Shown here: piece after piece, positions 31,801 through 46,149 of the stretch
How the letters are laid out: each line of letters starts with the position of its first letter
Position numbering within the stretch: position 1 is the stretch's first letter
Assembly (NCBI GenBank): GCA_964016885.1
Contig: OZ024741.1
Location: forward strand, 298,468,001-298,532,000
From: Eledone cirrhosa
Taxonomy: Eukaryota
Direction: 5' to 3'
DNA: 64,000 nucleotides
Notes under the pieces: generated by a model
What the model saw: the letters and a program-made list of their open reading frames with translations, nothing else
Told to the model about the DNA's origin: nothing
Databases searched by the model: none
Made by a program: the position numbers and the translations under genes

Positions 31801-33411
31801 TGTATGACTGACGCTTAAACAATTAAGTTAAAAATGTACATCCATATACGTATACTGAAATACTAGTATGCATATGAATACACACACGTATACATATGTA
31901 GATGTACCAAGTCTTTCACTGGTTACTTTACTGTGGGTATCCAGCTATTCTGTATGTAAACACACAGACAAACCGGTTTTTAGAGTCATACTGGTTTTTG
32001 AGGAAACACCTTTCCTCTATTCTCCAGAAAGCCAGACAAGGAATATTGAACTAGTTTCGTTGTTGTTACAACTCATCAGCAATATTTACCTATCTACCGG
32101 CCTTTCTGGAGAATCGTAAAAGCACATATTGTTATATGCTTTTTCTATGAAAATTAGTAGTGGGCAGACTAATTTGCATAGAGTGTGAGTACGTACCGGT
32201 TCAACGGAGACGATAAAAACAAATAACGAAACGAAATTAAATTTCGTTTCGTTTGTAACTCACTTTTGTATGACTGACGCTTAAACAATTAAGTTAAAAA
32301 TGTACATCCATATATGTATACTGAAATACTAGTATGCATATGAATACACACACGTATACATATGTAGATGTACCAAGTCTTTCACTGTTTACTTTACTGT
32401 GAGTATCCAGTATCCAATATATATATATATATTTTATCTATATATATATATATATATATATATATATATATATATATATATATATATATATATATATATA
32501 TATATATATATAATATATATATATATATATAGATAAAATATATATATATATATATATACATATATATAAATATATTATATATATATATATATATATATAT
32601 ATATATATATATAAATATATATTATATATATATATTATATTATATATAAAAATATATATTATATATATTATATTATATATATATATATATATATATATAT
32701 ATATTATATATAAAAATATATATTATATATATTATATTATATATATATATATATTATATATATATATTATATATATATATAATATATATATATATATTAT
32801 ATATATATATATATATATATAATATATACATATAATATATATATATAATATATATTATATTCATATATATATTATATATATATTATATATATATATATAT
32901 TATATATATATATATATATTATATATATATTATATCTATATATATATATATATATATATATATATATATTTTATCTATCTATATATATATATATATATAT
33001 ATATTATATATATATATATATATATATATATATATAGATAAAATATATATATATATATATATATATATATATATATATATATATATATATATATATATAT
33101 ATATATATATATATATATACATATATATACATATATATATATATATAATATATATATATATATATATATGTAGATAAATCTACCAAAAGTTTACGGTAGT
33201 GTCCAATCCGTATGAAGAACTCAATGTAATCCGGATATCATGGAAAGAAGAGATGCATTCAAAAATCACTTTCGGTGAAAGATAAACGGAATACAGAGTC
33301 AAGATAAAATATTAAAAAAATAATGAATAAAACAAAGAAACAGTTCCTTATATTAAACAAAAAAAGTTCATTATTTAACGATCGTTTCTAGGACATATAT
33401 GTGTTAGAATT
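22826..33411 (+). repeat. Near-identical second copy of ~12099-22625 (probable assembly overlap)
   Basis: Starts with aaggatgaaaggc as at 12099 and reaches gtgttagaatt as at 22625; visible differences are mainly 1-nt indels and TA-length changes. Confidence 0.9.
28489..29274 (+). pseudogene. Duplicate of the GIY-YIG ORF with two 1-nt T insertions
   Basis: Extra T in homopolymers near 28680 and 28973 relative to 17658-18443. Confidence 0.8.
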
Positions 33412-33509
33412 GGCATGCATATTCAAAAGATCTATGCACAAAATTATACAAACTATCAAGGAGAATATACATAACATCACATATATATGCTGTCTTCAGA
33501 ATTAATGAA
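33367..33509 (-). ncRNA. Hammerhead motif with ~104 nt stem II
   Basis: ttcattaatt CTGAAGA [104 nt rod] GAAAC gatc GTT aaataatgaa; damaged sense copy at 38299-38434. Confidence 0.7.
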
Positions 33510-34516
33510 GTATATTTATTGATAATAACAACAATTCAAAATTACAGGTCTGTTTGGGAACAGATTTTAAATAGACCAATGAAATACATAAAAATTCATC
33601 AAGAAAATACAGTTAGGTGTGTGTATACATGTAAGTAAATTCGTTCACAGATATGCATAAAAATGTATGCTCACATGCATACGCATGTCGAAAAAGTGTA
33701 TGTAAATATAAAAATTTAGGGCTAAAGTCTCTGTATGTTTATAATCTACAGACAAAATATACATACATATACATATATACATACATATATACACACATAT
33801 ACACACATTCATACACACACACGCATATACACACAAACACACACATACCTACGAACACACATATATATACACACACACACACACACACACATACGTATAT
33901 ATTATTATTATAACTATATGGATATTGAGGCGCACACATAAACACGGCCACACACACTTACATTTAGATGCAGAATTAAAAGGAGGTAAGGGAGTAAGTA
34001 ATTAAAGGAGAGTGTCAGACTCAGCATATTTATAAAAATGTATCTATAAAGTTAGAAACAAAAAAAAATTTTTTATAGAAGGAAAAAACTTAAAAACAGG
34101 GGAACAAAAAATAAGGGGGGGGGGGGGTTACGTAATACACAGACGCGAATGTCTCACAAAAGAAATATAACAAAAACAAAAAAACATAAAAGAGAGACAT
34201 AAAATATACATGCTTATATACATACGCACATTTACACATCCATACGTTCGATACATACATACGTACACACACACACATACACATACTTAACCTCACACAT
34301 ATTAACCTGTTTGTATGCATATACATAAAAACAAGTAAAACATATACTCATACATATAAATACACACCGATATATATATATATATATATATATATATATA
34401 TATATATATATATACACATACACACAACACACATATATACATATATGTACACACACATACACACATACATACACATACATATATATATATATATATATAT
34501 ATATATATATATATGT

Positions 34517-34700
34517 TAAAAAGAAGAAAGAGGCCCACAAGATCAGTAATTTGGGCAGAATCGCTTGAACCCATAGTAATATCAAATAGATTACTATATG
34601 TGTTTCTGGTCCAGTATTCATTCTGAAATTCAATAAGTGTTAGTCTAGCATGTGTAATAATATTAATGTCATCCAAAGTTAAGTTAGATCTATTTTTAGC
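34517..34700 (-). pseudogene. Inverted fragment of PLE reverse transcriptase
   Basis: [52 protein letters not shown] matches AKDNSDLTNDEIKIILEARKTIVKFENSYW..FDITMGSNDSAEITDIVGLFIA. Confidence 0.9.
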
Positions 34701-35808
34701 AGATGATAAAAATGCGACCTTCTATAACGAAGCTCTAGATAGAAGTGGCCACAAAAATAGATTGGAATATATACCTTCTACTAGTAACACTATAAACATA
34801 CAACCTAATATTACCAACAAACACCAAATGAAAAGTACACACCTAAATGCCACTCACACTATACCCCAAAATACCAACATAAAACCAAATTTCTCTAACT
34901 CCTCTAATATAAAGTATAGTAACTCTCAAAAAACTACTCATCATACAACTCTAATAAATGTTAATAATAAAACTCCTAATAAACAAGCTAAAACACCTAA
35001 ATCAATAAATCTAACTAAAAATGTGCGTGGTGAGGTCATTAACATTAATCCTCCTAGTAAACATCACGATGCATCCTATAAAAACAATAAACAACATAGA
35101 AACCGTAATAGACGAGTTACTTGGTATAATGCTCCATTTAATTTACAAATTAAGGATAATATAGCTAAACAAATTTTTAATATCCTAGAGAAAAACTTCC
35201 CGCCAAACCACAAATACCATCAAATCTTAAATAGATCAACAGTTAAATTCTCATACCCAACAACCAAAAATATAAAACAAAATATAAGTGCCTATAATGC
35301 ATATAAATGTAAAAAAACCATAAGTATACCACCAATACATCAAACTAACCATAATATCTCCTCAAATACAGAATTAACGAAAGGTTGTAACTGTAGAAAC
35401 AAAGCAAACTGCCCATTAAAAGGAAATTGTCTTGTTAACAACATAGTTTATAAATGTAAAGTTAAAACTAAAGATTCTATTTGCTCATATATAGGAGCTA
35501 CTTCTAACAATTTTAAGGTAAGGTTTAATACCCACAAACATAGTTTTAAAAATGCCGCACTGGCTAATACATCTCTAGCAGAAAAAATTAATAGTTATAG
35601 AAATAAGAATATAGAATATGATATGACCTGGAGTGTGCTCAAAAGAGCCACCCCTTATCAAAATAATAGAAATGAATGTAGATTGTGTTCCCAAGAACTA
35701 TTTGAAATAATGAAATCTAAGGATATCCTATTAATTAAGCGACAGGAATTAATTATATCGTGTAATCATAAACTGAGAAAAACATTTAAATATTATAAAC
35801 CTAATTAA
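34666..35808 (+). CDS. PLE linker + Zn finger + GIY-YIG endonuclease (RT missing; ATG supplied by the inverted fragment)
   Basis: [47 protein letters not shown]. Confidence 0.85.
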
Positions 35809-44473: not shown

Positions 44474-44520
44474 TGCTCCGATGATTCCAGACTTCACTCT
44501 GGAAGAAACAATTGTCAGCA
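44474..44520 (+). ncRNA. Hammerhead motif with CCGATGA (U4C) core
   Basis: tgct CCGATGA ttccaga-cttcac-tctggaa GAAAC aatt GTC agca. Confidence 0.8.
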
Positions 44521-45337
44521 ACTAAATGTTCTAAACTAAAATGTGATCGTTTTAACACTTTGTATCTCGGCTCTGTAAAACACTTGAAAATTTGCATTGA
44601 GCCTTTTGTCATACCGGTAACCGGCTAGTACTTAGTACTACCCTACATATTTATAGTTATATCAAACATATATAAATATAAATATTCTTATTACTATATA
44701 TGAATGTATGTATGTTTGTGTAAATGTATATGTGTGAATGTATGTATGTTTGTGTGGAAGTATGTGTGAATGTATGTATGTTTGAGTGAAAGTATGTGTG
44801 AATGTATGTAAATTTGTGTGAAAGTATACCCTCCCATCTCCAATTAAACCGAACGCTATGATGACTGTATGTGTGTGTTTGTGTAAATGAATATGTGTGA
44901 AATGCATATGTATGTATGTTTGCGTGAAAGTATGTGTGGGAATGTATGTATATTTGTGTGAAAGTATGTATGTTTGTGTGAATTATGTCCGTGAGAGTGT
45001 ATTTTTATAAGTTTGTGTTTGCGCGATTATAGTTATATATACTCATAATAGTTATATACTCATACATATAGATGTATGTATGTGCACAATCATATGCGTC
45101 AGGTGTAGAAAATCATAATCTCTCTATCTCTCTGATCACACTCTCTCTTTCTATATATATGGTAGTTGAAATAGTGGTGGTGACGATATACCGGAAGTGC
45201 AACTTTGAAAAGAAGTCAATTTAAAATTATTTATTTTTACGAAATTATTTTTGTTGACGAAATTGAGTACATAAATTATGTAATATTCATTCATTATTTA
45301 TTCAAAGTAATGAATGAATATTACATAATTTCTTAGG

Positions 45338-45510
45338 ACGGTGAATTAGCAGTATCGCCATGATTTCTAGCTTAGTTACGTCCCTTTACAGTCTGAGTTC
45401 AAATCCCGCCGAGGTTAACTTTGCCTTTCATCCTTACGGGGTCGATAAAATAAAGTACCAGTAATGTACTGGGTAATTGCTGACCTTGTGTCTAAAGCAG
45501 AAACAATTAT
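45338..45510 (+). mobile_element. tRNA-derived SINE
   Basis: B-box gagttcaaatccc plus the shared core. Confidence 0.85.
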
Positions 45511-46028
45511 TTATTCAAAGTAATCCAACTTATTTTACAAACGGGATAAAAAAAACCAAAACCGTACGCAATCCCGCAGACCTTCCTTTATTATAGTTTA
45601 TATATATATATATTGTTATACATTTGGAGGTTCATGCTGCCAATAAAAACGCACGCACCTGTTGGTTTCCTACAGGATGGTGTAGAACAGAACAAAGGAG
45701 AGACACACATTAACAAATTAATCATTGAGGGGTGGGCGCGGGAGATCACAGAATGAATGTGTGACGAAAGATCTTTGACAATAAATGAATAAACAACCAT
45801 CTAGTTATTAAACTAAGCAACTGGAAGTTTATAGTAAATTGAAGTGAAAGGTATTATGTGCATGTGTTTTTACTGGCAACGTGACCCTCCCAAAGTATTA
45901 CATTATCTGTTCCAGCACTTGTTTTCAGATAAGAAACCTTCCAAAACAATATAAAATATAAAAACGATATATATATATATATATATTGATAGAAAGATTT
46001 GAATGGATACAGTTTAGTTGAAAGGAAT

Positions 46029-46149
46029 TTATTGACACGTGTTTCTATAACAGTTACATAACCTGAAAACAGCTGCTATCTACAAACTTTTAGTTATGCA
46101 GACATTCAATATTTCAATGTTATTATTTACTGTCATTTCATCAGAATAA
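46029..46149 (-). ncRNA. Hammerhead motif with ~92 nt stem II
   Basis: ttatt CTGATGA aatgacagt...actgttata GAAAC acgt GTC aataa; canonical core, palindromic stem III, GUC triplet. Confidence 0.8.

Follow-up and report, generated by a model that had tools for sequence, protein, structure and literature searches.

Hammerhead ribozyme motifs with a greatly expanded helix II at the ends of repeats within or next to Hydra-clade Penelope-like elements in Eledone cirrhosa

The closest described counterparts of the motifs reported here are the hammerhead ribozymes of Hydra-clade Penelope-like elements (PLEs): these ribozymes belong to type I, lie at the 3' terminus, and combine a short, near-palindromic helix III with a helix I of 4-10 bp, unpaired bases beside helix II, an H17 that is often A or U, and (TA)n targets; the spacer between their two core halves, read by eye, is ~12-26 nt in every one of the 26 Hydra rows tabulated by Craig et al. 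(2021, PMC8557442, File S2). The minimal hammerhead ribozymes (min-HHR) of PLEs likewise have a dimer-type palindromic helix III, a short helix I, no evident loop-loop contact, and a helix II larger than usual, although "larger" there means 6-8 bp, usually with G10.1-C11.1 (Cervera and de la Pena 2014, PMC4209133). Deviating Chlamys-clade hammerheads, flagged as non-canonical, also have a stem II region that is enlarged, and the longest PLE entry in the published table (PLE-X1_sMoe, ~54 nt) consists of a 9-bp stem with a big loop (PMC8557442, File S2). In a 64,000-nt stretch of the Eledone cirrhosa genome (the window; GCA_964016885.1, contig OZ024741.1, positions 298,468,001 to 298,532,000 of the forward strand), three hammerhead motifs share this general layout; they stand at the 3' ends of repeats that belong to Hydra-clade PLEs or lie next to them, and their core halves are separated by 88-104 nt (copies in other organisms included) with 31-36 predicted helix II pairs, about twice the length of the PLE-X1_sMoe region and in another clade and host. 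The reading favored here, with a probability of roughly 0.55, is that helix II has grown as a tolerated fold-back expansion on a weak ribozyme of the dimer type. The pairing of this ribozyme with these elements is already known; what is new in the long-stem form is its size. Distant core halves are reportedly also a feature of the discontinuous Clec2 hammerhead of rodents (ascribed to Martick et al. 2008), which is said to be a type III motif in an mRNA 3' untranslated region (UTR) with its long insertion in helix I rather than in a folded helix II, and the Terminons of Arkhipova (2017) are said to carry hammerheads with a modestly enlarged loop 2, where a precedent is possible. A PLE hammerhead with a helix II of ~100 nt was not found in the literature searched, including passages of PMC4209133, PMC3088659, PMC13725137, PMC6765202, PMC10085705, PMC7229834, PMC11167929, and bioRxiv 2026.07.22.740005, and a precedent may exist.

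A scan of the window for CUGANGA and GAAAC-loop-GUH at most 300 nt apart, with helix I required, recovers 11 motifs, eight with spacers of 12-27 nt and three with spacers of 104 nt (site A), 92 nt (site B), and 96 nt (site C); the lengths run through 12, 14, 14, 20, and 27 nt and then jump to 92-104 nt. Site A (33367..33509, minus strand) consists of the 5' strand of stem I (33509-33500, 9 of 10 positions paired), CUGAAGA (33499-33493), a 104-nt insert forming a rod-like helix II (33492-33389), GAAAC (33388-33384), and then the palindromic loop GAUC and GUU with H17 at 33377; the cut is predicted between 33377 and 33376. Site B (46029..46149, minus strand), ~45 nt from the element end at a (TA)n tract, has a 5-bp stem I, CUGAUGA (46144-46138), a 92-nt insert, again rod-like (46137-46046), the palindromic loop ACGU, and GUC with H17 at 46034, with the cut predicted between 46034 and 46033. 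Site C (43441..43565, plus strand; core span 43446-43560) has a 96-nt, Y-branched helix II (43453-43548) and a predicted cut after 43560. The first-pass annotation of this DNA had placed the core halves 104 nt (33389-33492) and 92 nt (46046-46137) apart, with stem I pairing over 5-10 bp, and the rescan returns the same positions and pairing; its description of stem II as rod-like suits A and B and fails as a rule at site C, which it had overlooked. All three sites carry CUGANGA, GAAA, A15.1-U16.1, and H17, the core of the type I, dimer-type PLE hammerhead, together with a short palindromic helix III and an open helix I, and their layout matches that of the short Hydra hammerheads, with a single unpaired base flanking helix II on either side and an H17 that is often A or U. 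They depart from it in helix II itself, which is not the short helix of up to ~8 bp but an insert of 92-104 nt, and at its base, where position 10.1-11.1 is C.A in A, A.A in B, and U.U in C instead of the usual G10.1-C11.1.

Shorter expansions had also been proposed at 3989 and 63418, and neither is accepted here as an intact motif: the first folds otherwise and has two core departures (U4C and U16.1C), and the second combines U4C with a 38-nt spacer and an imperfect stem I. CCGANGA (U4C) motifs occur three times in the window (44478-44516, plus; 3997, plus; 63493, minus), and that at 44478-44516 is canonical apart from U4C, with a 20-nt helix II.

In the predicted folds the closing of each insert falls no more than one base from either core half, and helix II is predicted to form a domain of its own, with basal pair probabilities of 0.6-0.9 in A and 0.8-1.0 in B. 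The inserts of A and B have energies of -27.2 and -25.2 kcal/mol, and z-scores for A, B, and C are -3.5, -3.9, and -5.6, with 0, 1, and 0 of 500 shuffles as low; the six helices named in the first-pass annotation are all present in the predicted folds of A and B. Helix III of the monomer is 2 bp, and the palindromes self-pair over 8 bp at -10.0, -10.3, and -6.4 kcal/mol. Fold strength alone is not rare here, since 29-47 of 666 GC-matched 100-nt pieces (4-7%) fold equally well, and it therefore counts only together with exact closure at the core. This background is what would favor reading the sites as two short motifs that happen to flank an AT-rich hairpin, an explanation that is nonetheless extremely improbable: the three long-insert motifs compare with none in 300 block shuffles of the window, and among 92 distinct matches to the two core halves in a control scan of viral contigs (120 loci, 92 distinct inserts scored, no true example present), two have stem I, three have a closed insert, and none has both. 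The location of the sites at element ends and their presence in other organisms likewise argue against chance.

A small palindromic DNA element, or a fold-back during reverse transcription, could have landed in loop II of short hammerheads, the hairpin then reflecting DNA symmetry and not selection on RNA. Site C folds equally stably on both strands (opposite-strand z -5.6), site A contains self-complementary TA runs, and the window is full of DNA palindromes (e.g., 8501-8603 and 49386-49544). However, A and B are imperfect, contain 5-6 G.U pairs, and are biased towards the sense strand (opposite-strand z -1.4 and -1.05), no insert recurs in the window without its core, no target duplication is visible, and the inserts are unrelated to one another. 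Similarity between inserts is not significant (p 0.92, 0.19, and, for B against C, 0.11), a forced alignment of A, the second copy of A described below (A2), B, and C gives no usable homology between families, and the shapes differ (rod, rod, and Y in A, B, and C). A DNA palindrome is thus a very unlikely explanation of the expanded stems as they stand, and may account for the origin of the inserts but not for their upkeep.

The expectation in the first-pass annotation that length-limited searches overlook such forms is borne out. Rfam (4227 families, E up to 10) gives no hammerhead match at sites A and B, although it does detect the hammerhead with a 14-nt spacer at 40940, and the published search for PLE hammerhead cores allowed spacers of 7-17 nt (PMC8557442). 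Rfam microRNA matches in the window were dismissed as microsatellite noise.

The carriers had been labeled Naiad, a name that the neighboring ORFs do not support. According to the original description, Hydra-clade elements have C-terminal nuclease features, whereas Naiads have an N-terminal endonuclease, DKA, and no canonical hammerhead, while sharing with the present elements (TA)n targets, inverted truncated copies, and the same invertebrate hosts (Craig et al. 2021, PMC8557442). The open reading frame (ORF) upstream of site B (ORF B; 47018..49339, minus strand) is intact, 773 aa long, and of Hydra-clade type, with a reverse transcriptase (RT), then a CxCX5C linker, then GIY-YIG; by motif order in the alignment, the RT motifs, with YRDD at 352, precede a YVG/CxxC/CRH nuclease block at the C-terminus. 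It has RWK at 37-39 and DKT at 121-123, neither of which is visible in the truncated ORF of family A, and inspection by eye finds the CxCX5C linker, with CxxC and CxH around a conserved E and N and no CCHH, in the ORFs of families B, A, D, and E. The element ends adjoin (TA)n, a Hydra-clade target feature, and loose ends at (TA)n are also found in two sequencing runs treated below (X1 and X7). Because of this domain order and these motifs (C-terminal GIY-YIG, DKT instead of DKA, RWK, and CxCX5C), the Naiad label is wrong, and the neighboring ORFs are, by these features, those of Hydra-clade PLEs. Pfam and PDB searches with ORF B return no match, which neither supports nor opposes this assignment, and element B, at ~3.4 kb if its 3' UTR is linked as proposed, exceeds the size of generally under 3 kb given for the clade.

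The assignment of sites to elements runs across microsatellite-rich 3' UTRs. The stop codon of ORF B lies 874 nt upstream of site B, which presumably belongs to the 49339-47018 element; in the same way, site A presumably belongs to family A, a truncated Hydra-clade ORF fragment (34520..35808, plus strand; C-terminal half 34627-35808, plus, and a short inverted RT piece, 34640-34520) flanked in the usual PLE layout by inverted 1.1-kb 3' segments, A (34400-33304) and A2 (37405-38497). These segments align with 1074 matches, 13 substitutions, and 5 gaps. The A2 version of the motif (38291..38435, plus strand) has lost 7 nt of the core, has one change in the palindrome, and keeps the insert; each of the five substitutions within the motif breaks a pair that is intact in the other copy, two of them in A and three in A2, which is what the decay of a parent with better pairing should produce. 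The 3' end of copy A is ~135 nt longer than that of A2 (33168-33304), compared with the usual 30-40 nt PLE tail. The 3' half of site A is repeated at 22579..22625 (minus strand), where it is cut by an N gap, inside a near-identical duplication of ~10.8 kb (13080-22625 and 23776-33411) that surrounds the gap and may be an assembly artefact. Site C lies in a repeat fragment between (TA)n tracts (43020-43750) that has no ORF, so that we can only infer its clade.

ORF B has 288 relatives in 8000 scored candidates. Seventy-nine related metagenomic Hydra loci, from the best 80 of 386 confirmed, were scanned for hammerheads. Fifty of them have hammerheads (63 hits, or 64 under alternate rules), with spacers of 10-25 nt throughout, and none has a spacer of 85-110 nt; a relaxed scan of the same loci (up to 300 nt, one core mismatch) adds only a weak candidate with a 42-nt spacer (locus L013). 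The other 29 loci have no hammerhead, and many of these stop shortly past the ORF. Given these uniformly short spacers, the expansion of helix II looks lineage-specific. The long stems are accompanied by other enlargements: the 3' UTRs measure ~0.9, 0.9, and 2.5 kb in families B, D, and A, compared with 110 nt as the median of the 39 ORF-to-hammerhead distances measured in the related loci, and the protein linkers are also enlarged. ORF A is closer to ORFs D and E (42% and 41%) than to B (33%), and D and E carry short-stem variants, which hints at separate growth of the long stems, although the tree is weak; this quick tree of the C-terminal half, from which 4 of 64 chosen relatives (P0001, P0002, P0083, and P0093) dropped out and in which ORF B is a long branch, cannot separate one origin from several. 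Family D (16961-19445), which shares the long 3' UTR, has a hammerhead variant at 19370-19425 (plus) with CAGAAGA (U4A), a 13-nt helix II, a helix I of 5 bp, and a helix III that is longer and not palindromic, with copies at ~16980-17035, 27810-27865, and 30200-30255; the family also appears as a loose end in run X11.

Copies of element B are present in 18 of 24 listed sequencing runs, at least half of its words being found in seven; no RNA run is among the listed holders. Four runs with four organism labels (X1, X7, X8, and X11; the small-share runs X12-X18 were excluded) were aligned to 45990-46470, of which X1, X7, and X11 cover the whole B motif and X8 covers 45990-46117 only, so the complete 92-nt-type form occurs in contigs of three other organism labels. 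Element B has a high word share in all four labels and its 3' end is 98-99% identical in them; close relatedness of the organisms and horizontal spread of the element both fit. The palindrome, the basal, second, and apical helices, and, where covered, the core are unchanged across runs. The base at 46065 is missing in all four, which turns one G-C pair into G.U and removes one bulge; X1, X8, and X11 lack three further bases in the irregular middle, leaving an 88-nt insert, and in X7 a bulge and the apical loop have changed. In X7 the contigs of B have a depth of ~1660-1690, compared with 2-150 for other contigs in that run, which suggests an abundant, uniform family, depth not being copy number.

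Under the favored reading, the insert would close exactly at both core halves, so that CUGANGA and GAAA stay side by side, and two copies would pair through the 8-bp palindrome. Since PLE hammerheads work without a loop 1-loop 2 contact, nothing would hold the far end of helix II at its length, and slippage and fold-back in a genome rich in AT and microsatellites could extend it, with selection asking only that helix II close. The motifs likely cut weakly after GUH, as a dimer, as PLE hammerhead motifs of this type are known to do; the cut would mark the 5' end of an RNA from tandem copies, and the uncut RNA would serve as the insertion template. Three families whose inserts are unrelated all have perfect cores and palindromes, which points to selection on the core during or after growth, and the changes in family B fall in a bulge, in the apical loop, in the irregular middle, or turn G-C into G.U. 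In the anole PLE, the one tested in vitro, the hammerhead is protein-assisted and dispensable for insertion, shortening the template to +20 does not prevent insertion, and the RNA used mainly as template is uncut (PMC11167929).

Several observations weigh against the favored reading. At A, B, and C the lowest-energy fold is 3.8-4.4 kcal/mol more stable than the hammerhead fold, the basal helix of site C has a probability of 0.04 in an isolated 140-nt piece, no upstream pseudo-long terminal repeat (pLTR) partner is present at locus B, and no compensatory double change is seen in B across the four runs or between A and A2, these copies being few and close. Spacer lengths cluster at 92-104 nt in three families, with no intact core having a spacer of 30-90 nt; a small bulged helix (TCTRCA / TGTAGA) is found in B and C and at no other site in the window; and A and B, with their G.U pairs, are far more stable on the sense strand. 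These last points, with an 8-bp basal helix in both B and C and the demonstration that a PLE hammerhead needs its protein, would agree with the insert being a selected functional domain, either a spacer of set length or a site bound by the RT-endonuclease of the element itself, or by a host protein for double-strand RNA, which would chaperone cleavage or gate it. Such a domain is unlikely: the B-C similarity is not significant overall, A does not have the bulged motif in this order, spacers of 10-25 nt suffice in Hydra relatives, the middle of B tolerates indels, and stem II is dispensable for insertion in the anole element. In its fullest form, in which a Hydra retroelement lineage has made helix II a ~95-nt domain that binds its own protein or a host double-strand RNA factor and gates cleavage, the motifs would be natural protein-controlled ribozymes, a doubtful proposition at present.

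The remaining contrary points concern activity. Neither C.A (site A) nor A.A (site B), the states at the helix II base, occurs among the 63 related hits, and the high-depth X7 copy of B is mismatched at the fourth pair of stem I. Together with a C.C mismatch at the third helix II position of site A, the lost core of A2, and the retention of sequence beyond the cut site in all genomic copies, they would suit motifs that no longer cut and persist at the 3' end as structured relics, which may have been retained for their folding close to the start of reverse transcription. This is judged improbable, because the cores and palindromes remain perfect after ~80 nt of unrelated growth in three families and the core is unchanged in the three other runs that cover it, a weak argument at 98-99% identity; in addition, U.U, which forms the base of helix II in site C, is the state found most often in relatives (31 of 63) and, according to PMC3088659, is tolerated. 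The tolerated expansion of a weak dimer-type ribozyme accordingly remains the preferred reading, and sites A, B, and C offer natural constructs for asking whether helix II matters for protein-assisted cleavage in PLEs. How many PLE hammerheads are counted, and whether a clade is said to lack them, hinges on the length limit of a search and on the order of blocks that it allows.

Block order is relevant to the Naiads themselves. Read by eye, the 3' ends of five strongylid nematode Naiad consensi (Naiad-1, Naiad-2, Naiad-3_Nbra, Naiad_Hcon, and Naiad_Hpol; PMC8557442, File S5) form a complete hammerhead in C-S-G order, with helix I of 5-6 bp, helix II of 4-5 bp, helix III of 6-11 bp, helices I and II joined by a linker of 2-5 nt, an outer helix of 9-16 bp, and pairs kept despite different letters. 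This order is that of the non-circularly permuted type CSG, represented in its description by two sequences and no named genome (PMC10085705). Three cephalopod Naiads (Ovul, the consensus before it, and Esco) show, also by eye, an S-G-C order with helices I and III and a weak helix II, and a permuted hammerhead is not visible by eye in the Omin, Adux, Skow-1, and two ostracod Naiad ends. The window holds one S-G-C candidate at 57165 (within 57060-57200, plus), with a helix I of 8 bp, a helix III of 5 bp plus an extension, and a weak helix II; none of 300 shuffles gives one as strong, and one of 300 gives a weaker hit. It lies in a fragment between (TA)n tracts (56941-57232) that by eye resembles octopus and squid Naiad 3' ends and is possibly the only Naiad end in the window. 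No report linking Naiads with permuted hammerheads was found in the literature searched. Type-CSG hammerheads in Naiads would explain why these elements are said to lack hammerheads, and, if true, would answer that published puzzle and give type CSG, so far two metatranscriptome sequences, a genomic home; this lead, read by eye and mostly outside the window, is probably more important than the long stems. Should both a gated helix II and the permuted Naiad motifs prove true, PLEs would hold hidden hammerhead architectures that descriptors have overlooked.

The remainder of the window (25% GC) is dominated by (TA)n tracts and retroelement pieces. A possible, weak, decayed second hammerhead lies in the 3' UTR upstream of site B (46846..46905, minus strand), with a spacer of ~37 nt, an 8-bp stem, and G12 absent. 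A tandem array of ~130-bp units (35780-36800) has grown from the last codons of ORF A, and CAGATGA-like words within it were rejected as hammerheads because they derive from the ORF end. A 467-bp tandem repeat (40495-41668) with one short hammerhead per unit resembles a non-LTR retrozyme or a tandem pLTR and has copies at 20938-21604 and 31750-32416. A short interspersed element at 434-617, with further copies, is of a type typical of octopus and, like the resemblance of 56941-57232 to octopus Naiad ends, points to a likely cephalopod host. The window also contains a GC-rich palindromic repeat family and, where Hydra ORF copies end, perfect fold-back junctions (8501-8603, 42921-43026, and 62367-62567; 49386-49544; 56639-56872).

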